IMG/VR virus record: IMGVR_UViG_3300032242_000711
Span: 1 to 59,205 of that record
DNA: 59,205 bases
Direction: 5' to 3' (one strand)
DNA from: a virus
Lineage: Duplodnaviria > Caudoviricetes
The translations under genes were made by a program, and so were the position numbers. Of the stretch, positions 6,024-31,205 are shown in pieces. Within the stretch, counting starts at the first letter, position 1, and each line of letters starts with the position of its first letter. Below the pieces are notes generated by a model. It made no database searches. It was given only the letters and a program-made list of their open reading frames with translations, and was not told where the DNA came from.

Positions 6024-6052
6024 AATATATCACTGCTCTGCGGGGTGTGCAA
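6024..6052 (-). promoter_or_regulatory. sigma70-type promoter
   Basis: TTGCAC-17 nt-TATATT with an extended -10 TG. Confidence 0.7.
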
Positions 6053-6632
6053 GCAGTTTGTTGGACTTCGCAAGATTTTCTTCTTGGGTAATGACGCGCA
6101 GGTTCCACGACACATGCAACCCACATACGGCTTCGCCGCGCAGTGGGACGATGTGGTCAACTACATACTGCTCCCCAGTGGTCTTTGTCATGGTAATAGC
6201 AATCTGATAAATCTGGCGAATTTCAGATTTTTGTTTTCGTGTCAGCCACGGCGGGGTAGCCTCTCTATGTTTGCGGCGACGAACCTTGTTGTCAGCCAGC
6301 ACTTGGGTTTTGTTAGCGGCTTTCCACGCATTTCGGTATTCCCGCAATTGCGCAACGGGGCGTGTAGCTGCGGCTTGTTTTACCTGCTCATGGTTTTCGG
6401 CGTACCACTCATGCTTGCGGTCTTTAACATCTTCTCGCTTGTTGTACTCCCGAAAATACTCTGCGCGGGTTTCCGCAGCTTGTTGCCACTCCACCTTGAG
6501 GCAGTCAATACACGCGCCTTTGGTCTTGCGCGGGGCAATGTGCCCATGCTTGCATGGCTCTCCAGTGAAATAGTATTTGGCCCCCGTTGCTTTGGCGTCT
6601 GCGCGGGTCTTAGGTAAGTTGGCGGTGTCCAT
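6030..6632 (-). CDS. free-standing HNH homing endonuclease
   Basis: N-terminal YFTGEPCKHGH..R...C..C module and C-terminal VDHIVPL...CGLHV..NL......N..KSN. Confidence 0.9.
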   Translation of the reverse strand: MDTANLPKTRADAKATGAKYYFTGEPCKHGHIAPRKTKGACIDCLKVEWQQAAETRAEYFREYNKREDVKDRKHEWYAENHEQVKQAAATRPVAQLREYRNAWKAANKTQVLADNKVRRRKHREATPPWLTRKQKSEIRQIYQIAITMTKTTGEQYVVDHIVPLRGEAVCGLHVSWNLRVITQEENLAKSNKLLAHPAEQ

Positions 6633-6732: not shown

Positions 6733-7644
6733 TCAGGACGCGCCGGGCGAACCGAACATGCCCAGAGGGTCAGACCAGCCGAAGCTGTAACGCTCACGAG
6801 ACTTGTAACGGACGTTACCCGTATCGAAATCACCGTCCATTGAGTTTTGCAATGGAGTGCGCTCGAAGTGCTTCATACCGTTAGGCACATCGGTGGTCAG
6901 ATACCAGCCGTTGTTGTCAGTCAAGAAGTGGTTGACTGTATAGCCTTCAGGGATAGAACCGTTGTTCTTCAAGGCGTTGATGTCGTTGTCGGTTGTACCA
7001 ACGCGCAACTCGGTTTCGAGCAGGCGGGTAGCCACGAACATCAATGCTGGAGGAACAATCAGCTTCTTAGGCTTGGCAGCGATCAACAGACCACGTTCAT
7101 CAGTCCAAGCGGCGATCTGAATAACGGCGGCTTCCAAAGAAGTCTCGTTCAGGTCGGCTGCAACCGATGGGGTGTTGCTGTTGGTACCACCAGACACCAG
7201 TGGGTGAGCGGTGCTAAACAAAGCCACGCCGTCACCACCTTGGTAGCCATTGTTGAAACCGTTGTTGATAACGGCAGCAGCTTTGACTTGCTTGGTGTAT
7301 GCCATAGCACGAGCCAGAGCCTTGGTGTAACGAGCGGACAACGAGTCATACAAGTTGTCTTCGATAGCTTCTTCAGTCAAGCTGAAGCCCAAAGCGATGG
7401 TTTCGTGGTTGTAACGAGAAGTCCATGCTTCCTGTGCGTTGTCATAACGGATGGCAGAGCCTTCGTTCTTGACAGGTGCGGCAGAGAAACCAGACAGTTT
7501 CGTTTCTTCTTCAAAGCTACGCTCAGATGTCTCTGTTTCGTAGATTTCTTTGTGCTCTTCGCCGTAGCGTGCATACTCCAAACCGAACAAAGCGTTCAGG
7601 CCGGGCAGCAATTCCTTGAGCAGTTGTGCGCGTGAAATAGCCAT
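6733..7644 (-). CDS. major capsid protein (Mu gpT-like, HK97 fold)
   Basis: MAISRAQLLKELLPGLNALFG...LIVPPAL...RYKSRERYSFGWSD; AAGGAG RBS, biased codons, terminator behind. Confidence 0.88.
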   Translation of the reverse strand: MAISRAQLLKELLPGLNALFGLEYARYGEEHKEIYETETSERSFEEETKLSGFSAAPVKNEGSAIRYDNAQEAWTSRYNHETIALGFSLTEEAIEDNLYDSLSARYTKALARAMAYTKQVKAAAVINNGFNNGYQGGDGVALFSTAHPLVSGGTNSNTPSVAADLNETSLEAAVIQIAAWTDERGLLIAAKPKKLIVPPALMFVATRLLETELRVGTTDNDINALKNNGSIPEGYTVNHFLTDNNGWYLTTDVPNGMKHFERTPLQNSMDGDFDTGNVRYKSRERYSFGWSDPLGMFGSPGAS

Positions 7645-8531: not shown

Positions 8532-8981
8532 TTAAAGACCTTTGCCAAAGCTGCTTGAGGATTTCCGCTCTTGGAAGATTGGCATCCGTGGGTCGCTTTG
8601 ACGCATCAAGTTGTTGTCTACAGCTTCCGTCTGAGCTTGTGTTTGCTTGGCAACAAAAGCGTTGCGCTGATCCACAAATTCAGTTGGAGTCTTGCAAAGC
8701 AACAACCCGCCGATCTCGATGTTGTCCTTGTAACGGGACGCGGGATCAGCTAACAGTTGGAATTTGGGTTGTTCCTCAATACCTACAGGCTCCCAACCTT
8801 CTCGTAGTTTGGACGAAAGGTTACGTGGGTCAGCGTTGTTAAGTGTTGAGACGCGAATCCAGCGATAGGCATACCCGGGCTGTCTGTCAGGCTCGGGCAG
8901 CAATTCAGGGTTCATCCACTGCTTTGGACGTTCTGCCATCACACGCGTTTCAAGTTCTCTTGTAAGTCTATTTTCAGCCAT
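8532..8981 (-). CDS. head-module protein of unknown function
   Basis: YRWIR...N....LREGWEPV...GGLLLCK; GGAGG RBS before ATG 8981. Confidence 0.7.
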   Translation of the reverse strand: MAENRLTRELETRVMAERPKQWMNPELLPEPDRQPGYAYRWIRVSTLNNADPRNLSSKLREGWEPVGIEEQPKFQLLADPASRYKDNIEIGGLLLCKTPTEFVDQRNAFVAKQTQAQTEAVDNNLMRQSDPRMPIFQERKSSSSFGKGL

Positions 8982-9918
8982 TTCGGGCCTCCAATTCAAG
9001 TTGTGCCTTCACATATTGTTCGGGCGTCAAACCCAGCTTTTTGGCTAGATTTATTTGGCTCTGCTTCATTTTGACCTTGTTGGAGGCCGTACTCCGCGTT
9101 GCCGGGGCTACAACAGTTGTGGGTTTTGAGCCAGACTGTTTGCGGCCAGTTTGTTCTTCTTCCACGTCGCCAAAGGCATCGGGGAATCGTTTACGCATTG
9201 TTTTGTCTAATGCGCGATAATAGTCATCAGAACCAATTGGTACGCCAGTTTCTTTAAGCTCTTCATGCAAGCCTAAAGCGTAAGCGGTCATCCCCTTATT
9301 CCGACCAAACCAACTGTTGCGTTCTTGCCACGCTTCAGCTTTAGCGTCAGGTCTAGGGGCAGGTTGATACTGTACAGGTTGCTGTTGTACAGGAACTTCT
9401 TGCTCTTGTAAAGAGGGCATGCGAAAGTTTTTTGCCTGCATCAATTTGATGTTGGCCAACTGCAATGCCTGTTGAGCTTCCAATAATTTATCGGAATCCC
9501 CCGCTTCATAGGCTTCTTTATAAGCCCGTTTGGCCATTTCCAACTCCATACCAGCGGAGTTTTGGATGGTAGAAGCGTACTCTTTCTCGCCTGTAGTCAG
9601 GATTTGCTTGATACGCTTGTTCTCTTCAAGCAAGCGTTGCGCCAAAGTCACAGCTTCTTGCTGCTCCCGCAGGGCGGACTCTTTCTCACGGCGCTCATCA
9701 TGCCAAACCTTGCGCATTTGCTTGAGTTTGGTCTTGACGTTGTCGTCATATTGGTCAAGCTCGTCCCGTTCCAACTCCTCAACCAAAGGTTTTGGCAGGG
9801 GTTGGCGACCACGATCTTCTACAGGTGCGTCATCTTCAATCTCGATTTCAATCTCGACATTGTTTTTTGTGTCCTCGACTTCGTCGGGGAACTTAAATTC
9901 TTCAGCATCTAAAGGCAT
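8974..9918 (-). CDS. capsid scaffolding protein
   Basis: Acidic N-terminus, long coiled coil, W...N.WFG, C-terminal AKKLGLTPEQY; lies between portal and capsid genes. Confidence 0.75.
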   Translation of the reverse strand: MPLDAEEFKFPDEVEDTKNNVEIEIEIEDDAPVEDRGRQPLPKPLVEELERDELDQYDDNVKTKLKQMRKVWHDERREKESALREQQEAVTLAQRLLEENKRIKQILTTGEKEYASTIQNSAGMELEMAKRAYKEAYEAGDSDKLLEAQQALQLANIKLMQAKNFRMPSLQEQEVPVQQQPVQYQPAPRPDAKAEAWQERNSWFGRNKGMTAYALGLHEELKETGVPIGSDDYYRALDKTMRKRFPDAFGDVEEEQTGRKQSGSKPTTVVAPATRSTASNKVKMKQSQINLAKKLGLTPEQYVKAQLELEARNG

Positions 9919-9929
9919 TTTGTGCTCCT

Positions 9930-10358
9930 TTACTTACGTTTAATGCCACGAGGATCGTCCACAGTACCATCGACGCTATCGTCGTTAATCATGCGAAATT
10001 CCCGTCCGTGGATGACAAGGCGTGAGCCTGCGTTTGGTTTGACAAGGATGAAATCACCCTTCTTGCACCACGGGCCTGTAGGAAACTTGTTTTTGTCCAA
10101 GTAGCAGTCTGGCCCCAAATCAACAACAAATAAGACCGTTGTAAGAATCTCTTCGTTGCGCATAGTTTCATCAGCCTTGATAAGGCCAACTTCACTGTCT
10201 TCATACTTGCTCTCCGCTTCCGGAATGGCACAAAGGATTTTGTAGCCAGCAGGTCGCGGCAGTTGTTTGCCTTTTTCCTCTGCGGTGGCAGAGAAGTTGT
10301 AGGCTCCCACAACTTGGGGGTTGTTGACGTCTGTAGCCAACAGGATGGAATTAGTCAT
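9930..10358 (-). CDS. groES: GroES-like co-chaperonin
   Basis: P.GYKIL...GLI...V..LGPD...GDF.....AG......G.EFR.INDD.V pattern of the Cpn10 fold. Confidence 0.75.
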   Translation of the reverse strand: MTNSILLATDVNNPQVVGAYNFSATAEEKGKQLPRPAGYKILCAIPEAESKYEDSEVGLIKADETMRNEEILTTVLFVVDLGPDCYLDKNKFPTGPWCKKGDFILVKPNAGSRLVIHGREFRMINDDSVDGTVDDPRGIKRK

Positions 10359-13087: not shown

Positions 13088-14599
13088 TCAGTAGTATTCC
13101 CGCTTGCGTCGAAACTCGCGGGGGTCGTCTTGTTCATCGGAGTCTAATTGAATGAAGCCACCGCGCCGGTAGCGCAGTAGTGCCTGACTCATCGAGTCCA
13201 CCATGTCGTCATGCTCGCCTGACGGGAAGCTGGCTACTTCTTCTACCAGTTCTTCCGCCCAGTGCGTATTAGGCACCCATACTCGCCCAGATGCAAATAG
13301 GTCAGCCACGGCATTCAACCGTGCTATTTTGTCATTACCTTTGCTTGGTGTGAACTCTTGCACGGGGATACCCATGGCCCGAAGCTCAAAAATAAGTGGG
13401 CTTCCCGCCGCTTTGGCTTCCACAATGCACGAATCTGGTTCCCATTCTTTGTACTCTTCGTAGGCCCGGGCCTTGAGTTCTGGGAACTCCATGCGCTTTT
13501 TGAACGCATTGAGCAAGATAATATTGGACTGCGGCCTGCCCGTGTCATCATCCTTGTGAAACACACCCCATGTTGTGCACGCGCTGTAGTCGGCCCGCTC
13601 TGACTTAAGAAACGCCGTATCCCATGACTGGATCACAAAGTCGCAGTATGGTGGGCTGTCATCTTCCCAAGTCTTCCACCACTCCCGCTTGATGATCGCA
13701 CTGACATCGGACGTGGGCTGCTGCATGTACTGCGCCATCCACTTACCCGAAGGCAATTCATTGCGCAGGGACTCCAATTCTTTAATTGACCAGAACCCGG
13801 GCCACAGTGGCCTGCCCGAAGGCAAGATGGCTGGAAACTCAATCACGCGCCACTCATCTCCGTCACGCTGGGCAGCAGCTTTGAGCGCTTGGCCGGTCAA
13901 GTCCTTCTTAGACCAGCGCGTCATCACAATCACAATAGCTCCGCCCGGCTGGAGACGCTGACGCGGACCTGACGTATACCACTCATACGTCTTGTCGTAA
14001 ATCTCGGGGTTGGTTTCCGCTATGGTTGCTTCTTGTTCCGAGTGAGGGTCGTCAATAATGAGGATGTCCGCGCCTTTACCCGTAACCGCACCACCCACAC
14101 CAATCGCAAAATAGTCTCCACCATAGTTAGTCGCCCACCGGCCAGCAGCTTTAGAGTCAGACTGTAGTGAGACTTCCGGAAATATGTCTTTATAGCGGTC
14201 AGAATCAACGAGGTTCCTCACTTTCCGGCCAAAACCCACCGCCAATTCGGCAGTGTGGGACGTCTGAATCACCTTTTTGCCCGGGTACATCCCCAAAAAC
14301 CACGCTGGAAGCAAGTAACTGGCAAACTCAGACTTGGTATGCCGTGGCGGCATGTTAATAATGAGCCGTTTGATCTTGCCCTCGGCCACTTGTTGGAAGG
14401 CTTCTGCCATTTTCTCGTGGTGCCAACCATGAATGAAGCTCGGCCAAACGTATTTAACGAAGGCCATGAAGTCATTTGCTACAACTTCTTTAGTTTTGTT
14501 CCTTCGGGCCTCTGCAATCAACGCACCAACCTTTTGTTTGGCGGCATCAGGCAATGTTGGCAGCAGTTTTTCTGCTTGGGCCAGCAATTCAGGACTCAT
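13088..14599 (-). CDS. terL: terminase large subunit
   Basis: MPPRHTKS Walker A variant, LIIDDP Walker B, MTRW, SWDTA and HDDMVDS nuclease motifs. Confidence 0.95.
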   Translation of the reverse strand: MSPELLAQAEKLLPTLPDAAKQKVGALIAEARRNKTKEVVANDFMAFVKYVWPSFIHGWHHEKMAEAFQQVAEGKIKRLIINMPPRHTKSEFASYLLPAWFLGMYPGKKVIQTSHTAELAVGFGRKVRNLVDSDRYKDIFPEVSLQSDSKAAGRWATNYGGDYFAIGVGGAVTGKGADILIIDDPHSEQEATIAETNPEIYDKTYEWYTSGPRQRLQPGGAIVIVMTRWSKKDLTGQALKAAAQRDGDEWRVIEFPAILPSGRPLWPGFWSIKELESLRNELPSGKWMAQYMQQPTSDVSAIIKREWWKTWEDDSPPYCDFVIQSWDTAFLKSERADYSACTTWGVFHKDDDTGRPQSNIILLNAFKKRMEFPELKARAYEEYKEWEPDSCIVEAKAAGSPLIFELRAMGIPVQEFTPSKGNDKIARLNAVADLFASGRVWVPNTHWAEELVEEVASFPSGEHDDMVDSMSQALLRYRRGGFIQLDSDEQDDPREFRRKREYY

Positions 14600-20346: not shown

Positions 20347-21549
20347 ATGGCTAGCAAATTAACAGTCGAGCAACGTATCCAGAAGGATCACGTGTGGCTC
20401 ATGAAGAACCCGAAGTATTGCCTGTATTCAGGCATCTTGATGATCGGTAAGACCGAGGTCAAGGACGATGTGCAGACAGCTTGCACCAACGGACGCGATA
20501 CCTTTTATGGTCGGGCGTTCAGCGACAAGCTATCGGACAAGGAACGCAGAGGCATGATCTTGCATGAGAATTTGCACAAGGCGTTCAGGCACACAACCAT
20601 GTGGAAACATCTCTACAAGGACTGGCCGCAAGTGGCAAACATGGCGTGTGATTATGTTATCAACCTGTTAATAAATGACAGCGATACAGGTCATGTCGAT
20701 GTCAAGCTACCTGATGGTGGGTTGCTTGATGAGAAGTTCCGTGGGCTTGATGCCGGTGAGGTATTCCGCAGACTTAAAAAGGAAGCGGAGGACAACGGGT
20801 CTATCAACGTGAAGACTATTGATAACCCCGAGGGTCGAGACGTGCCGGTCGAGGAGGGCGGTGGGTTTGACGATCATGATTGGGAGAGCGCAGAAGGGAT
20901 GACCAACGAAGAGCGCGAGACACTTGCACGTGACGTGGACCAAGCGTTGCGCCAAGGTGCGATTCTAGCTGGAAAGATGTCTGCCAATGTGCCCCGAGAG
21001 ATTGAAGAGCTTACCGAAGCCAAGGTGGATTGGCGTGAAGCCATGCGTGAGTTCGTGACATCGTTTTGTCAGGACAAGGACGAGAGCACATGGCGGCGGC
21101 CATCCCGTAGGTGGATCGGACAAGATGTTTATATGCCTAGCTTGATCGGTGAGTCCGTCGGTCGCATCGTGTTGGGTATTGATATGTCAGGCTCGATTGG
21201 CCGTGAGGAGATCAGCGAGTTCTTATCCGAGGTCAAGAAGATTTGCGAGACTGTGCGGCCCGAGGGTATCGACTTGTTGTATTGGGACACAGACGTGTGT
21301 CAGCATGAGAAGTATGAACAAGACCAACTGGACAACTTGTTGTCAACAACCAAGCCCCGAGGCGGTGGTGGGACTGACCCGCAATGCATCGTGGACTACG
21401 TGATCGACAAGAAGATCAAGGCCGAGTGTGCGGTCATCTTGACCGATGGCTACGTGAGTTCGTGGGGTCAAGGTTGGCCATGCCCTACGTTGTGGGGTAT
21501 CACAACCGATATGGTCAGCGGCATTGGTAAGACGGTGCACATTGGCTAA
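20347..21549 (+). CDS. DUF2201-like metallopeptidase plus VWA domain protein
   Basis: TACTNG, HENLH (HExxH), N.ACDYVIN, MIDAS DMSGS, GGGGT, LTDG. Confidence 0.85.
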   Translation: MASKLTVEQRIQKDHVWLMKNPKYCLYSGILMIGKTEVKDDVQTACTNGRDTFYGRAFSDKLSDKERRGMILHENLHKAFRHTTMWKHLYKDWPQVANMACDYVINLLINDSDTGHVDVKLPDGGLLDEKFRGLDAGEVFRRLKKEAEDNGSINVKTIDNPEGRDVPVEEGGGFDDHDWESAEGMTNEERETLARDVDQALRQGAILAGKMSANVPREIEELTEAKVDWREAMREFVTSFCQDKDESTWRRPSRRWIGQDVYMPSLIGESVGRIVLGIDMSGSIGREEISEFLSEVKKICETVRPEGIDLLYWDTDVCQHEKYEQDQLDNLLSTTKPRGGGGTDPQCIVDYVIDKKIKAECAVILTDGYVSSWGQGWPCPTLWGITTDMVSGIGKTVHIG

Positions 21550-21763
21550 CGAGAAGTATGGCTACGGCTGGTCTGATTTCCGTGGCATGTATGACAACGT
21601 GTCGGACTTTTTTGTTTACCGCAAGGTAGCGCAAGATGTCCAACCGTGGTACAGACTGAAGCGGATGCGCAAGTACCGCATCATGTGGGGCACTAGGGTG
21701 ATCGGGTCCGACCTAACGAGCGACGAGGCTGATGCCTTGTTGAAGATTCTGCAAACAGATTAA
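21542..21763 (+). CDS. hypothetical protein
   Basis: Fills the gap in the operon; start uncertain. Confidence 0.5.
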   Translation: MANEKYGYGWSDFRGMYDNVSDFFVYRKVAQDVQPWYRLKRMRKYRIMWGTRVIGSDLTSDEADALLKILQTD

Positions 21764-21776
21764 CAGGTGTTAACAA

Positions 21777-22013
21777 ATGCGCAAGCAATGGTTTGACAGC
21801 CGAGCTGACGATGGTCAGTATTTCACAATCGTTATGAGAGAAGAAAGGAGATACAACATCAACATGTGGGCAACTGAAATCCGTATATGGTACGAGCCGA
21901 TCAGCTTTGCAAGTGCGAAGCACAAGAGCAAAGCCATGTACGGAGTGATGACAAAAGACGAAGCCATAGCTATGGCTAAATTACTTAACGCAACAGTAGG
22001 AGAGAGCAAATGA
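21777..22013 (+). CDS. hypothetical protein
   Basis: 78 aa, preceded by the palindrome. Confidence 0.65.
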   Translation: MRKQWFDSRADDGQYFTIVMREERRYNINMWATEIRIWYEPISFASAKHKSKAMYGVMTKDEAIAMAKLLNATVGESK

Positions 22014-22879
22014 TTCAGAACAGTGCAATGTTGGTTGACTTGAACATCAGCGTATGGACAGGTCGCAAGATGGACAAGAAAGTATCCGATGAGATCGGAG
22101 TGAGCAAGAACGCCAAGGGGCGGGTGGGCAACTATCATAAAAGTTTGCTCGGGCATGAGGGGCGGCTGGCTGATTTGCAAAAGCTGGTGTCGGCCATTCG
22201 CATTTGGCATTACGAGCAAACGTTGCCGTGGTCGGATGGTGGTTCACGCTTACTGCCAATGAAAAACTTCTTTGACTACAAGGCTACGTTGGCTAACTAC
22301 CAAACGCAGTTTGAAGAAGCCGTGGAATCGTTCTTGAAAGAGTACCCCATTCTGGTAAGTGCGGCGGCATTTCAGTTGGGTGATTTGTTTGACAGTGAGG
22401 AATACCCCGAAGCCCACAAGCTCGAAAGCAAGTTCAAGTTCAAGTACGTGTTCTTGCCTGTGCCCGAGGTGGGCGACTTCCGCATCGACGTAAGCGAAGC
22501 AGGAAAGGCTGAACTGAAAGAACAGTACGAGAAGTTTTACAGTGACAAGCTAGGCGAAGCCATGCAAGACGCATGGGACAGGTTGCATGAGTGCGTGGCG
22601 CGTATGAGTGACAAGCTGGCTAACACCCCGACACCCCGAGTGGGCAAGGACGGTGAAGAAAAGCACGTGCAGATTTTCCGTGACTCACTTGTCAACAATG
22701 CTGTGGACTTGTGCGAGTTGCTGACCAAGCTGAACGTGACCAACGACCCCAAGCTGGAGCAAGCACGCAAGAAGTTGGAGAGCGCGGTCAGTGGTGTGAG
22801 TGCCAAGGAGTTGCGTGAGAATGATTACTTGCGGCTTGGTGTCAAGGCCGAGGTCGATAAGATTCTGTCGATGTTCTGA
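22010..22879 (+). CDS. DUF3150-like protein
   Basis: LV.L.IS.WTGRK.D...TLPW...YP......KF pattern; helical C-terminus; neighbour of AAA/VWA genes. Confidence 0.6.
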   Translation: MIQNSAMLVDLNISVWTGRKMDKKVSDEIGVSKNAKGRVGNYHKSLLGHEGRLADLQKLVSAIRIWHYEQTLPWSDGGSRLLPMKNFFDYKATLANYQTQFEEAVESFLKEYPILVSAAAFQLGDLFDSEEYPEAHKLESKFKFKYVFLPVPEVGDFRIDVSEAGKAELKEQYEKFYSDKLGEAMQDAWDRLHECVARMSDKLANTPTPRVGKDGEEKHVQIFRDSLVNNAVDLCELLTKLNVTNDPKLEQARKKLESAVSGVSAKELRENDYLRLGVKAEVDKILSMF

Positions 22880-22896
22880 TTAACAGGAGTTAATAA

Positions 22897-23100
22897 ATGC
22901 CAAATGATCTTGATGCAATGCTAGAGATGGCGACAAGCATCGCCATTGTGCTTGGGTTCCTTGTGTTTATTTGCCTGTGTGCGTGGATGTTCCCAACCAT
23001 GACCGAAGCTAAACGAGTGGACTGCGCAATGGCTGAGTTCAGTCCTGACGTAAGTCTTGAAATCAAACAACTGTGCCGAGAGGCGAGGAGTAAGAAATGA
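22897..23100 (+). CDS. small membrane protein
   Basis: TM segment IAIVLGFLVFICLCAW followed by C..AEFSPD. Confidence 0.7.
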   Translation: MPNDLDAMLEMATSIAIVLGFLVFICLCAWMFPTMTEAKRVDCAMAEFSPDVSLEIKQLCREARSKK

Positions 23101-23258
23101 ACCTGAACCAAGGCGCAGTGGCGCAACATTTGGTTGATGACTTGCTTGACAAGATTCACCAGTACGACGAAACGCTCTACATGTCCACGGTGATTGGTGT
23201 GTTGGAGATCGTCAAGCAACAACTGATTAACGATTCACTGGAGGATGCAGATGAGTAA
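23097..23258 (+). CDS. hypothetical protein
   Basis: 53 aa read by hand (...STVIGVLEIVKQQLI...); GAGGAG RBS. Confidence 0.65.
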   Translation: MNLNQGAVAQHLVDDLLDKIHQYDETLYMSTVIGVLEIVKQQLINDSLEDADE

Positions 23259-23475
23259 AAAAATGACAGACTGGTTCCCGCCAAACATCAAGCCCGTACA
23301 TGAAGGCGTGTATGAGGTTCGCTTTGTGTACAAAACCTTTGGAAAGTTGTACGCAAGGTGGGATGGCAACAAGTGGTCAAACTCATCATGGCTTTTAACA
23401 GGTTTACACCTTAAAGAATTTAAAGGCGCAGAGCAGAAAAAACTCTGGCGCGGGTTTACGAAGGAGCAGAAATGA
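23251..23475 (+). CDS. hypothetical protein
   Basis: TDWFP..IKPV..GVYEV...WDG..W...WRG; GGAGG RBS. Confidence 0.7.
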   Translation: MSKKMTDWFPPNIKPVHEGVYEVRFVYKTFGKLYARWDGNKWSNSSWLLTGLHLKEFKGAEQKKLWRGFTKEQK

Positions 23476-23537
23476 CTGAACGCAAGTGGCCCGACAACTG
23501 GCCTTTTCCCCCATACCCATTACGAGGTGAAGCATGA
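23472..23537 (+). CDS. 21-aa micro-protein (WPFP)
   Basis: MTERKWPDNWPFPPYPLRGEA; AAGGAG RBS, ATGA-coupled. Confidence 0.45.
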   Translation: MTERKWPDNWPFPPYPLRGEA

Positions 23538-23629
23538 AACGACAAACCAAACTTGAGATTGCCGTAGCGGTGCTGTGTACCGTGTGTTCGTCAATGATCG
23601 CATGGAGGTTCTATGAGTGGATGGCGTAA
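23534..23629 (+). CDS. 31-aa hydrophobic micro-protein
   Basis: MKRQTKLEIAVAVLCTVCSSMIAWRFYEWMA; GAGGT RBS. Confidence 0.45.
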   Translation: MKRQTKLEIAVAVLCTVCSSMIAWRFYEWMA

Positions 23630-24635
23630 ACGAACCATTATGGAGATGGCGCGGGAGGCTGGCGCTATTGAAATGCGTGATAACGATTCAATGGGTTGGG
23701 GTTGTGAGTTTGAGTTACATCAACTTGAAGCCTTTGCCAAGCTGGTGCGTGAAGATGCTTTGGCACAGCCAGAACCTGTGCAGGAGCCATCAGGTTTTTT
23801 TCGCAGAGAAGACGCATGTGGCGATGAAGTTGGGCCGCCTGTCCCGTACTACCTCACGCCACCAGCACCTGTGCAGGAATGGATGAAGCCGAACCCTAAG
23901 TGCGACGAAGCGTGCCTGTTTCAATGCACAAAAGGGTTTACACAGTTTCCCGAGTGTGCCGCCACCCCACCCGCACAACCAGCACCCGGAGACATCCGAG
24001 CTTTGAAGCATCGCATTCATGAGCTTGAAGGCGAGGTTTTGGGCTACAAGCAGATGTTTGATCTCGCAGAAGAAAAGTTTAAGGGAGCACCTGTGCCAAA
24101 TGGATGGAAATTGGTTCCTGTGGAGCCGACAAGAGAAATGTGGACAGCCGTTAACAAACTGGACGATCAATGCGCGGCAGGTAACTATGACGGCAAAGGA
24201 TGCTCTATTCAGCAGGCGTGGAATTGTTTGCTTGACGCTGCACCTACCCCACCCGCACAGCCAGCACCTGTGCAGGAGCCTGTGGGGTGGATGGAAATGG
24301 TCGTAACAAACCTTGTGCGCGAAGGCGTTAACAAACATAAAGCGCGTGCGCTTGCAGAGCATTTTTATACTACCCCACCCGCACAGCCAGCACCGTACAT
24401 AGCTGTATCAAACGACCGCATGACTATTGACCCGCACACAGGCTATGTAAGCATTGGCACTGTGGCACAGCGCACATGGGTTGGTTTGTCGGATGAGGAG
24501 GCAGATGAAATATACGCCTCTGTACAGGAAGAAGTTAACGAGCATTGGGACAAGGGTGGCACAACCATGATGTTCCCCTTGACGTTATACAAAGCGATTG
24601 AAACCAGACTTAAGGACAAGAACAATGCCGCTTAA
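23613..24635 (+). CDS. mosaic protein of short modules joined by TPPAQPAPVQEP linkers
   Basis: Five related linker copies at both protein and DNA level. Confidence 0.8.
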   Translation: MSGWRKRTIMEMAREAGAIEMRDNDSMGWGCEFELHQLEAFAKLVREDALAQPEPVQEPSGFFRREDACGDEVGPPVPYYLTPPAPVQEWMKPNPKCDEACLFQCTKGFTQFPECAATPPAQPAPGDIRALKHRIHELEGEVLGYKQMFDLAEEKFKGAPVPNGWKLVPVEPTREMWTAVNKLDDQCAAGNYDGKGCSIQQAWNCLLDAAPTPPAQPAPVQEPVGWMEMVVTNLVREGVNKHKARALAEHFYTTPPAQPAPYIAVSNDRMTIDPHTGYVSIGTVAQRTWVGLSDEEADEIYASVQEEVNEHWDKGGTTMMFPLTLYKAIETRLKDKNNAA

Positions 24636-24810
24636 ACCACACCCAACAGACCCAGACAAGATGGTCTATTACAGCCGCCAGTACGACCTGCCACAGCGCA
24701 CATGGGTAGGCCTGACGGACAAAGAACTGGAAGAATTTTCAGATGCCGAGCTTGGGTCGTATGACCTGTGCCTCGAAGTCGAAGCCAAATTAAAGGAGCG
24801 CAACACATGA
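24625..24810 (+). CDS. small protein (QRTWVGLT..E family)
   Basis: Shares QRTWVGL.D.E and a (I/V)E.(R/K)LK.(K/R)N end with the preceding gene. Confidence 0.7.
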   Translation: MPLKPHPTDPDKMVYYSRQYDLPQRTWVGLTDKELEEFSDAELGSYDLCLEVEAKLKERNT

Positions 24811-24953
24811 GATTTAGCGTCAAACTTTTTAAAGTTCGGTACGTTTTGAAAGTGTATTTTCCACCTGAGCGGTACATCAAATGGTTGCCAGCAATATTTT
24901 GGGCAAAAGTTGGCCCTGTAACAGTTCCAAAAGATAAGAACAATGCAAATTGA
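24807..24953 (+). CDS. hypothetical protein
   Basis: 48 aa, AAGGAG RBS, ATGA-coupled. Confidence 0.55.
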   Translation: MRFSVKLFKVRYVLKVYFPPERYIKWLPAIFWAKVGPVTVPKDKNNAN

Positions 24954-25140
24954 TACAGACATGAGCGCGATTGACAAAGCCATTGCAGACGCATTGACAT
25001 GCGGCACAGGGGTCATGAAGTTCAACTTCACAAATGGGTTGGTACTGTGTGACCATGTGCCAATCAAAGACTTCTTGCAATTCAGCGAAGAACTGAAATG
25101 GCGTTCAGAAATCTCTACTCATGAGGAGAAGAACGGATGA
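24943..25140 (+). CDS. hypothetical protein
   Basis: 65 aa (DAL..GTGVMK), ends THEEKNG. Confidence 0.65.
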   Translation: MQIDTDMSAIDKAIADALTCGTGVMKFNFTNGLVLCDHVPIKDFLQFSEELKWRSEISTHEEKNG

Positions 25141-25358
25141 AAGTACACCACCTGAAAGATTGGGATGCCACTGCCATGCTCACCCATGCAATAGAACGCA
25201 TAGCGCCAGATCAGTCTTGCATTGTGCTGTTTTATGAAGACGATGAGCTGAAAACACTTTCGTCGCACGTAGACAACCAACATGCCGTATGGATGTACGA
25301 ACTGGCAAAGCTGGTCGTACTGCATCAATGTATTACTCATGAGGAGAAGAACACATGA
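25137..25358 (+). CDS. hypothetical protein
   Basis: 73 aa, ends THEEKNT. Confidence 0.7.
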   Translation: MKVHHLKDWDATAMLTHAIERIAPDQSCIVLFYEDDELKTLSSHVDNQHAVWMYELAKLVVLHQCITHEEKNT

Positions 25359-25534
25359 TCGTCACCAAGGTCCGTGGCCAGGAAAAAGTCGGCAAGATTC
25401 TGATATCTGCATCTGAGGCACATGTCGCCAAGAGCTTGGGCCTACCGGTCGAGAAGTACATCAAGCTCCTGCTCGCCGACATTGCCAAGAAGCGCAGGTG
25501 GAAATGGTATTTCAAACAGCAGGAGAACACATGA
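25355..25534 (+). CDS. 59-aa protein resembling the scaffold C-terminus
   Basis: Read by hand: MIVTKVRGQEKVGKILISASEAHVAKSLGLPVEKYIKLLLADIAKKRRWKWYFKQQENT; GAGGAG RBS, coupled at both ends. Confidence 0.7.
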   Translation: MIVTKVRGQEKVGKILISASEAHVAKSLGLPVEKYIKLLLADIAKKRRWKWYFKQQENT

Positions 25535-25710
25535 TTCTGACGCCCGAAGAAGATGAAGAATTCAACCGCATCGAGCGCGAATCTATCGCGCGCAAGATGA
25601 CGGTGGCCTACAACCTCAAGATGCAGCGCATGCGCGAAGAGGTCCCTGCAGGCATTCCATTTATCACCCCTGAAGAACTGCAAGAGTTTTTGAAAGACAT
25701 AGATGACTGA
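25531..25710 (+). CDS. hypothetical protein
   Basis: MILTPEEDEEFNRIERE...; AGGAG RBS. Confidence 0.7.
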   Translation: MILTPEEDEEFNRIERESIARKMTVAYNLKMQRMREEVPAGIPFITPEELQEFLKDIDD

Positions 25711-25876
25711 GCATCCCTATTCACCTTTTTTGTGGAAACAAGATCCCCGTCCGAGCATCATCCTGCAGGACAAGAACATCAAGGCATCAGAGACTGCACG
25801 CCGTCAAGGGCATCGGTCAAAGAACATTTCGTTCACGACCTATTCAAAAGCGCGGGTCGCCCCCAAAAGCAAGTAA
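25703..25876 (+). CDS. small basic hypothetical protein
   Basis: 57 aa read by hand (MTEHPYSPFLWKQDPRPSI...); fills the operon gap. Confidence 0.5.
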   Translation: MTEHPYSPFLWKQDPRPSIILQDKNIKASETARRQGHRSKNISFTTYSKARVAPKSK

Positions 25877-25897
25877 CCAATTTTAAGGAGAGTGCAA

Positions 25898-26743
25898 ATG
25901 TTGAATCTGAAATTAAACGACAAAGTGTCCCCCACCATCGTCAGTATCTTGACGGAGTTCCGGCGGTCTCAAGTGAGCCGCTTCCCAATAGAAGTTGAGG
26001 CGCATGAAAACGATGCTTGCAAGGTACGGTTTGTAGATTCGCGGTTCCCAAACAACTCTTGGAGATTACACAACGTGTTGGCCAAGCTAGACATAGTGGA
26101 CTATGACAAACACAACAAGCCTGTATTCCAGATCACGTGCCGGTTGATTAACAACGAGAAGTACGTATCATACAACGAGTTATACAACACCAAAGAAACT
26201 AGCGATCCCAAGAAGCTGTTGAAGCTGTTGAAAGATTACGTCAAGCCGTACTCTGCACAAGAAATTGCGCACAAGAGTTATGAGGCTATAGATTTAAAGT
26301 TCAGTGCATGGACACATGAACCCTCTGAATTGTTTCAGGAGTGCACCCGGGGACTGACACGTAGCGACATAGCTGAAGAAGTTATACGGTTAAAGATGGC
26401 AGGGGTACAGTTCCACACAGAGAAGTTCCAGAGGGTTGCCGAGGAAGGGCTTGAGCATTACTACGAATCCAAGCGCCGCGCGAGTATAAAAAGTTGCAAG
26501 ACCCATGTGCTTGTGCAACCCGATTCGTCCGTGGTCATTACGACCCTGCCAAATGGGGCAGTGGAAACAGGCAACGCTACGTATGAAAACATGGAGACCG
26601 TACCGGTAGCCATACAGCAAGCTGTTGCTATGTTGCGCATGGTTGAGGCAAATACATTCGTTCCTGAGACAGGTATGAAAGTCAGCGACAACCGTTTTTG
26701 GGTTGAGGTAAACCCCGAGGAATTTAATTATTCAAACACTTGA
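25898..26743 (+). CDS. hypothetical protein
   Basis: 281 aa, AAGGAG RBS. Confidence 0.8.
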   Translation: MLNLKLNDKVSPTIVSILTEFRRSQVSRFPIEVEAHENDACKVRFVDSRFPNNSWRLHNVLAKLDIVDYDKHNKPVFQITCRLINNEKYVSYNELYNTKETSDPKKLLKLLKDYVKPYSAQEIAHKSYEAIDLKFSAWTHEPSELFQECTRGLTRSDIAEEVIRLKMAGVQFHTEKFQRVAEEGLEHYYESKRRASIKSCKTHVLVQPDSSVVITTLPNGAVETGNATYENMETVPVAIQQAVAMLRMVEANTFVPETGMKVSDNRFWVEVNPEEFNYSNT

Positions 26744-26768
26744 CAAACCTATAAGAGTCCTATATATT
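26740..26768 (+). promoter_or_regulatory. sigma70 promoter
   Basis: TTGACA-17-TATATT. Confidence 0.8.
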
Positions 26769-26774
26769 ATGGAC

Positions 26775-27050
26775 ATGAACAGAAGATTTGTAGCGCAAGT
26801 GCGTGTTAACGAGGATGGTGAAATTTTGTACGTCTTGGCTTTGGACAACGAGTCCCTTGCCGTGAGACCGATTGAGCCTAGCAAAGCACCTGAGTTTCTT
26901 GTTGAGCGCGTTGCGCTGTTGCGCCTTTGTGAAATCAGCCCCGAGGAAGGAGAAGCTATCGGAAGAAAATTTTCAATGGAACGTTTTAATGTGTACTTGT
27001 CATTCGATGAGTACAAACAACTAATTGATTTAATCGGAGTGCAAAAGTGA
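26775..27050 (+). CDS. hypothetical protein, possibly leaderless
   Basis: ATG at 26775 lies 7 nt after the -10 box; no SD sequence. Confidence 0.65.
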   Translation: MNRRFVAQVRVNEDGEILYVLALDNESLAVRPIEPSKAPEFLVERVALLRLCEISPEEGEAIGRKFSMERFNVYLSFDEYKQLIDLIGVQK

Positions 27051-27481
27051 AACACAAAAATTCTATTCCCCAACGCATCATGCGTGTGCTTGAAAGCCAC
27101 AGCATTGATGGCATGAAGCTGGCCGAAGTTGCCGATGCTTTAAAGGTAGACAATACAAAAATCTACGCCCCCATGTGGAAACTCAAAACCACAGGCAAGG
27201 TCAGTCTGAAGGATCACTATTACAGATTAACAACTGTTAATAAGCCTGATGCCCAAGAGTTGCCAATCACCATGCAAGAAGAACCACAGGACGAACCTGC
27301 TGACAATTCGGTTGCTACACACAAGCGCTTGATCGTGAAGCTACGCAAAGAAATTGAGTCTCTGAACGAGGCCAACAAGAAGTTGGGAGCAGACTGGCGC
27401 AATGCCCGTGAATCTTCCCTCCACTATGAGCGCTTGTATTTGGATACGCTTGCTGTTGTCAAGTACCTAGAATCCAAGTAA
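27047..27481 (+). CDS. winged-HTH plus coiled-coil protein
   Basis: IMRVL...GMKLAEVADAL......IY....KL...GKV pattern. Confidence 0.6.
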   Translation: MKHKNSIPQRIMRVLESHSIDGMKLAEVADALKVDNTKIYAPMWKLKTTGKVSLKDHYYRLTTVNKPDAQELPITMQEEPQDEPADNSVATHKRLIVKLRKEIESLNEANKKLGADWRNARESSLHYERLYLDTLAVVKYLESK

Positions 27482-27832
27482 ATGGCAACACCCGAGGCAA
27501 AAGTCAAGGCATTAGTGAAACGTGTGCTTACGAAGCACGGTGCCTACTTCTTCATGCCAGCTACACATGGATACGGTTCATCCGGTGTCCCTGATATTGT
27601 GGCTTGCATGAGGGGTAGGTTCATTGGTGTCGAGTGCAAAGCAAATGGCGGCAAGCCCACAGCCCTCCAGATGAAGAACCTGATGCAGATCGTTGACCAC
27701 GGCGGCATTGCGTTACTTGTTGATGAGACAGGTATTGGTGTGCTTGATATGCTATTCAGCACTTGGAACGACAACGGCATGCCTCCACAGGGATACATCT
27801 CCGAGTTGTTGAAAAAAAGCCATGAGAAGTAA
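27482..27832 (+). CDS. VRR-NUC domain endonuclease
   Basis: TPE.KVK...GVPDI.....G.FIGVECK.....PT.LQ. Confidence 0.88.
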   Translation: MATPEAKVKALVKRVLTKHGAYFFMPATHGYGSSGVPDIVACMRGRFIGVECKANGGKPTALQMKNLMQIVDHGGIALLVDETGIGVLDMLFSTWNDNGMPPQGYISELLKKSHEK

Positions 27833-28031
27833 ACCCACAGATGGCACAGCACGAAGACTACTACGCATCATGCAAGGCAAATACGCAATGTCTGTGCATG
27901 ATGTTGCTAGGAATTTAAAGATCAGCACCCGACACGCATGGCGGTTCATCAGCCACCTTGAAGCAGAGGGTCTTATCTATCTACGATACCGGCAACGGTG
28001 TAACTATTACGCAATCAGGAGAAACAAATGA
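27822..28031 (+). CDS. small HTH DNA-binding protein
   Basis: MSVHDVARNLKISTRHAWRFISHLEAEGLI. Confidence 0.7.
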   Translation: MRSKPTDGTARRLLRIMQGKYAMSVHDVARNLKISTRHAWRFISHLEAEGLIYLRYRQRCNYYAIRRNK

Positions 28032-28330
28032 AGTTGGACAAATTGGCACAAGGTATAGCCCTCGCCCGATGGCAATTCAATCTGGACGCCACGGACATCT
28101 TGGTGCTGGACTATGCGGCAAGCGCAATCAAAGAGCGCAAGAGCGTAACTATCATGGAAATTGTGGATCAGTCGGGCATCGCGTCACCGGCAACCATCCA
28201 CGCAAGGATCAAGCAGCTATGCGACCAGCGCTACTTTGACAAGATCGCGCACCCGACCAACATGCGATACAAGATGTTGGAATTTGGACCTGCGTACACG
28301 CGGTTCATCGAAGGACTAAAAGGAGTTTGA
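28028..28330 (+). CDS. MarR-like winged-HTH protein
   Basis: TIMEI......SPATIHARIKQL......K......R.K.L. Confidence 0.65.
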   Translation: MKLDKLAQGIALARWQFNLDATDILVLDYAASAIKERKSVTIMEIVDQSGIASPATIHARIKQLCDQRYFDKIAHPTNMRYKMLEFGPAYTRFIEGLKGV

Positions 28331-28331
28331 C

Positions 28332-28616
28332 ATGGCAGAACACAACAACGCGCCGGTAGATACCGAGGCTGTTTTAAAAGATATGTTTGACCAAGTAACC
28401 AAAGAAGTCACCAATGGTTTAGACGATGACTCTGTTGAGGTTGCGACCATACTGGATAGCAAGATCAATGAGCGTATTGATGCAATATTTAGGCATCATT
28501 GGAATACAAGGTTGCGCAGTTATATAAACGCACGTATCTCTGAAGAAATTGCAGAGCAAGCAATGCTATTGGGCAAACGCTTGGGTCAACTAAATGGAAG
28601 CCGAGGTGAATTATGA
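28332..28616 (+). CDS. hypothetical protein
   Basis: 94 aa, AAGGAG RBS. Confidence 0.65.
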   Translation: MAEHNNAPVDTEAVLKDMFDQVTKEVTNGLDDDSVEVATILDSKINERIDAIFRHHWNTRLRSYINARISEEIAEQAMLLGKRLGQLNGSRGEL

Positions 28617-28924
28617 GCGAAGAAAAATTTTCAGGTGTTGATACGTTGGTCGAGCGCATGAAAACGCACCCCGAGGAGTTCTTTGAGACTGGCGATAAAC
28701 GAGGCCGTTGGTCGTTCGTGTACAAGGATTACTTCAGAGACGCGATGACCGAGATCGAGAAAGGTCGCTTGCATGAAGCCCTCAAGACTGTGCGCCGCAT
28801 GGAGTTCGATGCGATGGTGGTCAAAGAGTTGATGAAGGAAGAGCTAACCGAAGAAACAGTTGCAAATGAACTGTCGAATTTTGGTAAGGCAGTTGCCAAA
28901 GGTCAAGGCCAGAAAGTGAAGTGA
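28613..28924 (+). CDS. hypothetical protein
   Basis: GV..L.ERMKTHPEEF motif; ATGA-coupled. Confidence 0.7.
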   Translation: MSEEKFSGVDTLVERMKTHPEEFFETGDKRGRWSFVYKDYFRDAMTEIEKGRLHEALKTVRRMEFDAMVVKELMKEELTEETVANELSNFGKAVAKGQGQKVK

Positions 28925-28926
28925 TA

Positions 28927-29367
28927 ATGAAATTCATAGAAAAAGTTTACCGCAGGTTTTGCGCAGATGAGGTTAAGCTGATGCTTGACCACATGGAAGA
29001 TAACTATGCTGATTTTGAAAGCGTCCTCAACCATTGGTCTGACATAGTTGACTCTAACGAATACACTGCTGTGGAGAGAGCCGCAATTAACCTTGCACGC
29101 AAACGACTACGCAAAGATGCAAAACGTCAGAGGTTGCTTGCAGACATTCTTACTCAGAAGCTCAACCCCAAGCAATCTCGAAGGGAAGAAATAGAGCAGG
29201 GTAGAAAATATGCAAGTGCATTGCATAGCAAAATACTAGCAGGCCAACAAAATATGTACAACAATCAACTTGCGCAATACGCTCAGCAGCAACACCAACA
29301 ACACATACAAACGCATGAAGAATACGCAAGGCAACAAGCGAACATGCTATACGGCAAACAACCATGA
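28927..29367 (+). CDS. hypothetical protein with Gln-rich tail
   Basis: ORF coupled to the polymerase start. Confidence 0.65.
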   Translation: MKFIEKVYRRFCADEVKLMLDHMEDNYADFESVLNHWSDIVDSNEYTAVERAAINLARKRLRKDAKRQRLLADILTQKLNPKQSRREEIEQGRKYASALHSKILAGQQNMYNNQLAQYAQQQHQQHIQTHEEYARQQANMLYGKQP

Positions 29368-31205
29368 ACGTAATCACAATCGACTTTGAGACGTATTACA
29401 GCAAGGACTTTGGGTTCAAGACCCATACCACTGAAGAGTACGTGCGCGGGGACCAGTTTGAAGTTATCGGTGTATCTGTTGCCGTTGGCGATGCTGATCC
29501 TGTATGGTTCAGTGGGTCTGATGAAGACACACGACAATTTCTTATGCAGTTCAATTGGGCAGGCTCATTTGTGCTGGCTCACAACACGCAGTTTGATGGA
29601 GCAATTCTGTCGTGGCGTTACGGCATCAAACCAAAAGGCTGGCTGGACACACTGTGCATGGCACGTGCGATCCACGGTGTCGATGCGGGTGGTAGCTTAA
29701 AAATCCTAGCCGAGCAATACCATATCGGTGTCAAAGGTACTGAGGTGGTAAATGCGTTGGGCTTGCGCCGCAAAGACTTTCCCGAGGATCAGTTGGCGCA
29801 GTATGGCGAGTACTGCAAAAACGATGTGGAGTTGACGCGCACTTTGTTTCACAGGTTCATGCTGCCGGGAGTTGGTGAAGGCTTTCCTGTAAAGGAGTTA
29901 AAGGTTATTGACTGCACCTTGCGTATGTTTGTGGAACCCACACTGACGCTTGACTTGTCGATGCTGGAGGCGCACCTTGAGGGAGTCAAAGCCAAGAAGG
30001 CAACCTTGCTTGAAGCGGCGGCGGCAGACAAAGATACGTTGATGTCTAACGACAAGTTTGCAGAACTGCTGACCAAGCTCAACGTTGTGCCCCCTCAGAA
30101 AACAAGCCTGAGAACTGGCAAGAAAGCATGGGCATTTGCCAAGACCGATGAGGAGTTCAAAGCCCTCTTAGATCACCCCGATCCAAGGGTGCAAGCAGTG
30201 GTGGGCGCTCGGTTGGGAACCAAGACCACGTTGGAAGAAACACGTACACAACGCTTTATAGATATAGCCAAGCGTGGCCCTCTTCCAGTGCCTATCAAAT
30301 ACTATGCCGCACACACCGGAAGGTGGGGTGGGGACGACAAGATCAACTTGCAGAATTTGCCAAGTCGTGGGCAGAATGGTGGCAAGTTGAAACGAGCAAT
30401 TCAAGCCCCAGAAGGTTACGTCATCATCGACTCGGACTCATCACAGATTGAGGCGAGAACAGTTGCGTGGCTTGCGGGACAAACCGATTTGGTGGAGGCA
30501 TTTGAAAATGGGCATGACGTCTACAAGATCATGGCTACTGCTATATATGGCAAGGGGATTGAAGAAATCTCAAAAGAAGAAAGGTTCGTTGGTAAGACAA
30601 CAATTCTTGGCGCGGGGTATGGCATGGGAGCGCTCAAGTTCCAAACGCAACTCCAGACGTTTGGCGTTAATGTTACGTTGGATGAGTGTCAAAGGATTAT
30701 CAGTGTTTACAGATCGACTTATGACAAGATACCTGCGCTATGGCGACAAGGCCAAACTTGCATCGAAGCGATTGTTACAAACAGAGCGGCGACATTCGGA
30801 AACGTAAACGCAGTTCATTTTGATGCAACCCGCAAAGGGTTCCTTTTGCCAAGCGGTCTGTGGCAACGCTACGAAGGGTTGTACACAACAAGCACCCCAG
30901 AAAGCCGCACAGAGTACTGGTACAAAACACGCAAAGGCCCAGTGCGCATCTACGGCGGCAAGGTCGTTGAGAACATCTGTCAAGCTGTTGCAAGGTGTGT
31001 GATCGCTGAGCAGATGCTGTTGATTAGCAAACGGTACAAGGTTGTGCTGACGGTGCATGATGCCGTGGCCTGTATCGCCCCTGAAGCCCAAGCCAAGGAA
31101 GCGCAAGATTATGTTGAGCAATGTATGCGCTATCGACCAGAGTGGTGCAAGACGTTACCTCTCAACTGTGAATCGGGTGTCGGACAAAGTTATGGCGACT
31201 GTTAA
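29364..31205 (+). CDS. polA: DNA polymerase family A with 3'-5' exonuclease
   Basis: IDFET, AHN..FD, Y...DV (exonuclease); TGRW, NLQN, DSSQIEAR (motif A), R..GKTTILGAGYG (motif B), VHD (motif C). Confidence 0.95.
   Translation: MNVITIDFETYYSKDFGFKTHTTEEYVRGDQFEVIGVSVAVGDADPVWFSGSDEDTRQFLMQFNWAGSFVLAHNTQFDGAILSWRYGIKPKGWLDTLCMARAIHGVDAGGSLKILAEQYHIGVKGTEVVNALGLRRKDFPEDQLAQYGEYCKNDVELTRTLFHRFMLPGVGEGFPVKELKVIDCTLRMFVEPTLTLDLSMLEAHLEGVKAKKATLLEAAAADKDTLMSNDKFAELLTKLNVVPPQKTSLRTGKKAWAFAKTDEEFKALLDHPDPRVQAVVGARLGTKTTLEETRTQRFIDIAKRGPLPVPIKYYAAHTGRWGGDDKINLQNLPSRGQNGGKLKRAIQAPEGYVIIDSDSSQIEARTVAWLAGQTDLVEAFENGHDVYKIMATAIYGKGIEEISKEERFVGKTTILGAGYGMGALKFQTQLQTFGVNVTLDECQRIISVYRSTYDKIPALWRQGQTCIEAIVTNRAATFGNVNAVHFDATRKGFLLPSGLWQRYEGLYTTSTPESRTEYWYKTRKGPVRIYGGKVVENICQAVARCVIAEQMLLISKRYKVVLTVHDAVACIAPEAQAKEAQDYVEQCMRYRPEWCKTLPLNCESGVGQSYGDC

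Follow-up and report, generated by a model that had tools for sequence, protein, structure and literature searches.

Why would a tailed phage encode, apart from its head genes, a small protein that looks like the end of its own scaffolding protein? The question is raised by a 59,205-bp virus record (Duplodnaviria; Caudoviricetes; IMG/VR record IMGVR_UViG_3300032242_000711), estimated to be 94% complete, which was analyzed over its whole length and is called the window below. Its plus strand carries, at 25355..25534, a conserved accessory gene of a replication-arm operon, coding for 59 amino acids (aa) plus a stop (P0001, the mini-protein). We found that residues 14 to 45 of this protein (25394..25489, +), a strand followed by a helix-loop-helix, resemble the C-terminal tail of the presumed scaffolding protein of the same genome (P0002, 314 aa; 8974..9918, -), and the comparisons set out below make common ancestry with the last 32 to 35 scaffold residues very probable. 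The mini-protein is a paralogue of that terminal scaffold module, encoded by the phage as a protein of its own, and not itself a scaffold: it is 59 aa long and encoded in the replication arm, rather than being the C-terminus of a ∼300-aa helical protein encoded between the portal and capsid genes.

We looked into whether the open reading frame (ORF) is a gene at all. According to the ORF list and its translation, it starts with an ATG at 25355 and stops with a TGA at 25532-25534 (+). A Shine-Dalgarno-like GAGGAG, read from the sequence at 25341..25346 (+), lies 8 nt ahead of the ATG, within an exact 15-mer, CATGAGGAGAAGAAC, which also precedes the upstream ORF; ATGA start/stop overlaps join the mini-ORF to both adjacent ORFs. 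Two protein collections contain the protein with an identical sequence. A collection of 5.8 billion proteins yielded four relatives of 59 to 60 aa (58 to 62% identity), and an exhaustive search of 1.84 billion representatives retrieved 29 proteins at E <= 0.001, 28 of them small (45 to 92 aa) and one of 597 aa. In IMG/VR, 37 loci harbor the gene, and one more copy lies on a 58-kb contig of a metagenome-assembled genome (MAG). Protein length is conserved across the 33 members of the family alignment (A2), and the dN/dS ratio has a median of 0.28 and a maximum of 0.55 (146 of 435 pairs with 0.05 < pS < 0.6, from 30 full-length coding sequences). Conservation on this scale indicates that the mini-ORF is a real gene, and the substitution pattern indicates that it is under purifying selection. 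Other searches came back empty: the mini-protein matched 0 PHROGs families and had no usable match in the ESM Atlas, blastn of positions 24500-26500 gave no match among phage records, and tblastn of the protein against 50,697 phage records gave nothing better than E = 6.

The original prediction had aligned 27 residues of the mini-protein, without gaps, to the end of the ORF at 8974-9918 (-). That alignment is exact, with 11/27 identical residues. Compared as a single pair by BLASTP, the mini-protein and the scaffold share 11/28 residues (24 bits, E = 1e-4), and in a six-frame search of the window's record the scaffold tail was the only non-self match (E = 0.0035). A hidden Markov model (HMM) of five mini-protein relatives, run against 1121 stop-to-stop ORFs of at least 30 aa, had the scaffold as its top non-self match (E = 8e-4; next 2.7), and the reciprocal HMM of the tail ranked the mini-ORF first (E = 0.028; next 0.75). 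The single-pair and six-frame values are modest. They could be taken to favor the reading that the resemblance is due to chance or to a generic helix-turn-helix (HTH), the ORF being no gene or one unrelated to the scaffold, as could the common pattern (S-x-x-x-hydrophobic-A-K-K-L-G-hydrophobic...E-x-Y), which resembles a classical HTH, and a Sigma70_r3 match in one of the 33 members (E = 0.08, 13.5 bits against a cut-off of 25.3).

Comparison of the two families profile against profile, as the original prediction had proposed, speaks strongly against this reading. Between 33 mini-proteins and 82 distinct scaffold tails, hhalign returned a probability of 96.3% (P = 2e-9, score 45.8), pairing mini-protein residues 14 to 45 with scaffold residues 281 to 312 (8983..9078, -) free of gaps. 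Shuffling the columns of the tail alignment 200 times gave scores that averaged 9.3 (standard deviation, 2.1) and never rose above 17.5; with the alignment reversed, the score was 8.3. The finding also held in independent genomes. We searched 16 other long related records, eight with scaffolds 65 to 78% identical to that of the window and eight from a second scaffold lineage; in 16/16 the sole match of the mini-protein profile was the C-terminal tail of a ∼300- to 335-aa scaffold ORF (15.5 to 24.1 bits, E from 1.9e-6 to 1e-3 per record). In the other direction, the tail HMM matched 20/37 mini-protein loci at E <= 1e-3. The best single pairs of mini-protein and tail have 16/27 identical residues, and in one MAG the two have a run of seven residues, GVPLELY, in common. 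The conserved positions common to both, written as tail/mini-protein, are K92/K14, V93/I15, L95/I17, Q99/E21, K104/K26, L106/L28, G107/G29, Y113/Y35, and K115/K37, charged residues included, and the mini-protein follows the tail profile K-V-x-L-[ST]-x-[ST]-Q...A-K-K-L-G-[LIV]...E-x-Y. Homology could not be extended with hhalign to mini-protein residues 1 to 13 and the TVVAP motif of the scaffold, where the spacing fits and no score is added.

The match is also specific. Among 177,635 distinct PDB sequences, the mini-protein profile reached at most 14.6 bits, against the 15.5 to 24.1 bits of the scaffold tails, so that no PDB sequence scores as well; its five PDB matches at E <= 10 were all ADAM17 chains, with no HTH or ribbon-helix-helix (RHH) protein among them. 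No Pfam HTH or RHH model reached its cut-off in any of the 33 members. With purifying selection and a length kept across 33 proteins added to these results, a chance or generic HTH resemblance is very improbable, and we regard it as refuted as far as sequence statistics can go. The shuffle-controlled hhalign comparison, the 16/16 records, and the specificity against PDB and Pfam thus bore out the claim that part of the mini-protein is a true homologue of the C-terminal helix-loop-helix of the scaffold.

We then analyzed the two head proteins that the comparison involves. The 314-aa protein is flanked by the portal and GroES-like genes on one side and by the major capsid gene, and it matches phrog_28737, a family of unknown function (E = 5.4e-34). 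We presume that it is the scaffold from its position, its charged helical make-up, and its C-terminal helix-loop-helix; the annotation of related phages does not name its counterparts as scaffolds. Its nearly invariant columns cluster in its tail, distant phages match it only over residues 188 to 304, and the window's own tail is ordinary for its lineage. A model of the last 125 residues consists of a small three-helix part, a disordered linker (predicted local distance difference test [pLDDT] of about 44 to 52), and a terminal helix-loop-helix at fragment positions 97 to 105 and 110 to 124 (pLDDT 76 to 85); a fold search with this model gave nothing informative (best Z 4.8). The major capsid protein (303 aa; 6733..7644, -), the proposed docking target, belongs to the Mu gpT-like type (Pfam Phage_capsid_4, E = 4.3e-15; phrog_371, major head protein), and among its counterparts those of HTVC023P and others have a capsid protein annotation. 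The N-terminal arm of the window's protein is acidic, with nine glutamates in residues 28 to 48; the scaffold tail and the mini-protein are both basic.

AlphaFold2, given the 33-sequence alignment, predicted a compact mini-protein (mean pLDDT 90.5) with strands at residues 2 to 5 and 12 to 16 and helices at 19 to 27, 32 to 47, and 50 to 58. In the ungapped hhalign mapping of the two models, the first two helices correspond exactly to the two terminal helices of the scaffold fragment. As modeled, the mini-protein is the scaffold's terminal module with an N-terminal strand and a C-terminal helix added. The N-terminal part, residues 1 to 13 (25355..25393, +), is specific to the family in alignments A1 and A2 (MxVRKVRGxxK) and is predicted to form the first strand and turn of a beta-hairpin. 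The C-terminal part, residues 44 to 59 (25484..25531, +), which scaffolds do not have, holds the invariant basic-aromatic motif IAKKRRWKWYF and a short tail; A44, R47, W49, and W51 within IAKKRRWKW are invariant in all 33 sequences.

What might such a module do on its own? The reading that we tentatively favor is that the mini-protein docks on the capsid protein as a free scaffold tail. It is drawn by analogy. In P22, the C-terminal HTH of the scaffold (residues 271 to 300) is reported to use R293 and K296 to bind acidic residues in the N-arm of the coat protein (PMC9965877, in part; the docking also in 10.1101/2022.12.13.520362, in part), and the scaffold C-terminus of phage 80alpha is described as docking beside the N-arm helix of the capsid protein (PMC5644958, in part). 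By analogy with P22 gp8 and the 80alpha scaffolding protein, the scaffold of the window would dock on the capsid protein, at its inner face or N-arm, by means of its tail, and the mini-protein would retain this activity while standing alone. Being monovalent and lacking the long oligomerizing body of the scaffold, it might compete with the scaffold for capsid subunits and so modulate or poison procapsid assembly; alternatively, it might ride into procapsids and bring its basic C-terminal motif with it. Several features speak for docking. The tail, judged by its alignment, is the best-conserved part of the scaffold, and its conserved positions, lysines and the tyrosine among them, are kept in the mini-protein family. 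The capsid N-arm is acidic, and both the tail and the mini-protein are basic. The distribution of the mini-protein also fits a capsid-linked role, as all six mini-protein-bearing records long enough to include the head module (the window, G001, G002, G003, G008, and contig 55 of G027) have this type of scaffold and capsid. The idea of a free coat-binding domain stood in its scaffold-tail half, whereas its capsid-binding half did not move beyond analogy, the docking role of the tail itself being borrowed from P22 and 80alpha. The three roles that the original prediction offered for such a domain, namely a block on competing related phages, a delay of the phage's own head assembly, or protection of the capsid protein from host sensors, are speculative. 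Complex prediction with the capsid protein (A3, 30 rows) and the mini-protein (A2, 33 rows) gave 0.01 and 0.00 against a mark of 0.32; it was run without controls and carries no weight either way.

The closest known system is CpmB of SaPI1, to which we infer a likeness in working only, the mini-protein not being a member of the CpmB family. CpmB is likewise small (72 residues modeled to the C-terminus), and the part of it that touches the capsid is a homologue of the scaffold C-terminus of the phage; it binds at the scaffold's own site on the capsid protein, in competition with the 80alpha scaffold (PMC5644958, in part). Docking of the mini-protein would follow by analogy. In the same paper, the scaffold-like part of CpmB is an extreme C-terminal helix and hook with an RIIK motif, and the protein dimerizes by its N-terminal domain and changes capsid size. 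The scaffold-like part of the mini-protein, in contrast, is internal and is followed by a basic-aromatic extension, and the RIIK motif is found in neither the mini-protein nor the window's scaffold. CpmB is encoded by a satellite that pirates a phage, while the mini-protein gene sits in the phage's own replication arm; the record is not a satellite without capsid genes, as it has its own terminase, portal, capsid, tail, and replication genes. The C-terminal HTH of P22 gp8 (NMR structure 2GP8) resembles the scaffold tail of the window in layout, a long helical scaffold ending in two short helices with a tight turn between them, and in being basic, and in both phages the capsid N-arm is acidic. 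No sequence relationship between the two was detected: neither the mini-protein profile (A2) nor the scaffold profile (A4) matched a scaffold protein among the PDB sequences at E <= 10, a search in which domains this short can be missed. The window's capsid protein belongs to the Mu gpT/Phage_capsid_4 type. To our knowledge, P22 carries no free-standing copy of its coat-binding domain, and we found no description of a phage-encoded free scaffold tail in a nonexhaustive literature search by title or start of abstract.

Several points weigh against docking. Both the scaffold role of the 314-aa protein and the docking of its tail on the capsid are presumed. The gene does not lie with the head genes and is on the same strand as those for the ATPase, DNA polymerase, exonuclease, helicase, and primase. 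The scaffold-like module is internal, with 14 more residues after it, and is embedded in a domain predicted with confidence to be compact, which could bury the docking face. The invariant A44, R47, W49, and W51 and the best-conserved N-terminus lie outside the scaffold-like segment, and the strongest selection would therefore act on something that scaffolds lack. Covariation of mini-protein and tail, evaluated in four genomes and underpowered, had the tail of the own genome as the best match to the mini-protein in only 1/4; the strong conservation of the capsid in the group lowers the weight of this test further. At the residue following the conserved glycine, the mini-protein has L in the two genomes whose tail has L, and M, I, or V in the three whose tail has V; by hand and with relatedness ignored, Fisher's test gave a P value of about 0.1 for this agreement. 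Finally, an HNH homing endonuclease has HTH repeats that the mini-protein also matches (by phmmer across the library, E = 6e-4; by hhalign, probability 72.7% and P = 3.2e-5).

This last match bears on another reading, that the mini-protein is a small nucleic-acid-binding protein, an early regulator or a DNA or RNA factor, whose HTH has common ancestry with the tail and which works through the AKKRRWKW helix without binding the capsid. The protein is very basic, with 13 K/R against 5 D/E and a net charge of +8 in 59 residues, its invariant residues belong to the part outside the scaffold-like segment, and its gene lies among small ORFs of the replication arm. The endonuclease in question, P0155 (597 aa, from the representative library; NUMOD4/HNH_3), has four tandem HTH repeats of 60 residues, each ending in IRNKKRWKHISDKF. 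All four were matched, with helix A, the LG turn, the long helix B ending in K-K-R-W-K, and the same spacing from the glycine, and the hhalign score of 26.6 exceeds the best tail-shuffle score. The match is weaker than that to the tails all the same (hhalign probabilities of 72.7 against 96.3%; family-profile scores of 14.5 bits, at most 8.5 per repeat, against 21.5), residues 44 to 59 contribute to it, and a single protein was compared. The repeats have a preceding helix 1, as in a classical three-helix HTH, where the mini-protein is modeled with a beta-hairpin, and scaffold tails do not match the repeats (hhalign probability 2%). As a separate observation, the repeat family seems to have no Pfam model at threshold.

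Fold comparisons are similarly divided. The weak top matches of the mini-protein model were mostly RHH DNA binders (Arc, CopG, ORF56, NikA, MatP, and ParD; Foldseek E 3.8 to 9, VIA Z 2.5 to 3.2), which agree with it in strand-helix-turn-helix order and small size, as do RHH repressors of the Arc, CopG, and MetJ class in general. None of these matches comes near significance: Foldseek, run on PDB and BFVD, gave nothing at E <= 0.001, and the best hit of a VIA-wide fold search was the N-domain of trigger factor, at Z 3.7. RHH repressors are intertwined dimers, whereas the mini-protein is modeled with an intramolecular hairpin and a third helix. No RHH family of Pfam appeared at E <= 1 in 32/33 members, and the remaining one matched CcdA below threshold (E = 0.099). 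Together with the Pfam HTH models below threshold in all 33 members and the lack of HTH or RHH proteins among the PDB sequence matches, these results count against nucleic acid binding, for which the weak Sigma70_r3 match and the prevalence of RHH binders among the weak top fold matches count slightly. The position of the gene cuts both ways, as it lies in the middle of a translationally coupled run and not beside a promoter; a scan of 21500-29500 found promoter-like and terminator-like elements in numbers equal to those of shuffled sequence. We consider a nucleic-acid-binding role possible but doubtful.

The distribution of the gene is that of a rare and patchy accessory. It is absent from 16/16 of the long related records described above, six of which are at least 90% complete, and its 37 loci compare with at least 592 and at least 594 scaffold-bearing stretches, for the two scaffold lineages, in the same collection. 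No conserved neighbor or partner emerged when 11 window genes were searched for in the 37 loci, the most frequent being found in 4/37, and the genes that flank the mini-ORF in the window are weak or absent in four complete relatives. Patchiness and the lack of a conserved neighbor are typical of accessory genes directed at a host or a competitor. They would suit a further reading, in which the scaffold-like module has been redeployed to pair with the scaffold tail or body, the portal, the terminase, the GroES-like protein, or a host protein, tuning assembly or something unrelated and leaving the capsid untouched. The solid tail homology combined with the highest conservation in the family-specific N- and C-terminal parts points the same way. 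None of our results suggests such a partner, and the 37 loci hold no co-occurring gene; we also know of no self-association of P22-type scaffold tails. We judge this reading to be quite unlikely.

The capsid itself is very conserved in the group, the best 120 relatives being 92 to 96% identical, and forms at least 8000 clusters. Under the docking reading, the module might serve as an address tag to the scaffold site of the procapsid, with AKKRRWKW acting there (a DNA-binding internal head protein, packaged and perhaps injected), or the protein might act in trans as a poison of scaffold-driven assembly between co-infecting phages with near-identical capsids. Either of these specific roles is, on present evidence, unlikely. 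The window's scaffold tail being ordinary, no visible feature would spare the phage's own assembly from such a decoy.

One mini-protein-bearing contig is assigned to a cellular genome. Contig 55 of G027 (locus L223; 58,391 bp), from an "uncultured Armatimonadetes" MAG, holds the mini-protein gene, a scaffold gene (36% identity), and a capsid gene (66% identity). Its length is that of an entire phage genome in this group, so a phage contig that ended up in a bacterial bin is the probable explanation, and it gives no evidence of the host. Two more contigs of the MAG contain another scaffold (contig 138) and another capsid gene (contig 455).

By its scaffold and capsid, the phage of the window has as kin the pelagiphages HTVC023P and HTVC027P, the Roseobacter phages CRP-901 and CRP-902, the Planktothrix phage Pag-Yong1, and phage DSL-LC04, and these head-gene sequences place the source phage in an abundant group of aquatic podovirus-like phages, as kin of pelagiphage HTVC023P. 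Head and tail genes are on the minus strand, with the terminase at 13091-14599, the portal at 10545-13079, and the GroES-like gene at 9933-10358, followed by the scaffold gene, a gene for a 285-aa protein of unknown function (7656-8513), and the capsid gene; virion and tail-fiber proteins are encoded beyond 39.5 kb. The replication arm spans about 15.5 to 39.3 kb on the plus strand and encodes the ATPase, an HNH endonuclease, DNA polymerase, exonuclease, helicase, and primase. The mini-ORF lies within it, about 4 kb upstream of the polymerase gene, and it is from this position that its description as "early" derives.

Around the mini-ORF, the exact 15-mer CATGAGGAGAAGAAC occurs at 25120-25134 and 25338-25352 (+), at two successive gene junctions 218 bp apart. 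It holds the ribosome-binding site of the next gene and forces ...HEEKN ends on both upstream proteins, and a looser version, CAGGAGAACACATGA, is present at the junction 3' of the mini-ORF. Three matches with at most three mismatches are not above chance (13 of 100 shuffles reach three); it is the two exact copies that stand out. One possibility for the 15-mer is a translational-coupling cassette, another a recombination joint within a mosaic region.

Some of the head-arm neighbors deserve mention. Between the portal and scaffold genes, the 142-aa protein at 9930-10358 (-) matches the co-chaperonin GroES family phrog_3188 (E = 5.7e-7) and has no Pfam match at E <= 0.01; a GroES-like protein beside phage head genes recalls gp31 of T4. 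The 285-aa protein between the scaffold and capsid genes is rich in Thr, Ser, Ala, Gly, and Val, has no Pfam match at E <= 1 and a weak PHROG match (E = 0.0035), and is matched in position by a counterpart of 190 to 220 aa in each of two distant relatives; a role as a decoration protein or a second shell protein is possible. Directly downstream of the capsid gene, a 200-aa protein (6030-6632, -) shows by eye an HNH-like end motif (...VDHIVPL...WNL...) and has no Pfam match at E <= 0.01. Further on, three adjoining small basic proteins rich in Gly and Lys (3701-4024, 4040-4420, and 4657-5004, all -) each end in cysteine (...GKIC, ...GKAC, and ...RWKC). The first two are paralogues with a common DGIA-x-RGKTRGK motif (BLASTP E = 6e-6), and the third carries DUF6321 (E = 7.4e-24); the three could be internal head proteins or DNA-associated proteins.

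Scaffold tails serve as handles in the building of capsid shells, and the only well-studied free mimic of one, CpmB, is borne by a satellite. A phage with a free copy of its own scaffold tail would, if this is what the mini-protein is, suggest a new layer of assembly control, interference between phages, or cargo targeting, in a very abundant group of aquatic phages (at least 8000 capsid clusters and at least 592 plus at least 594 scaffold-bearing viral contigs). As an address tag or a poison, it would be the first phage-encoded free-standing scaffold tail. If docking is true, the module would provide a natural capsid-docking tag of 32 residues and open the unexplored scaffold-capsid interface of Mu gpT-type capsids to direct tests. 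Should the mini-protein bind DNA instead, scaffold tails and a DNA-binding HTH would be of common ancestry, which would bear on the origin of scaffold docking domains.

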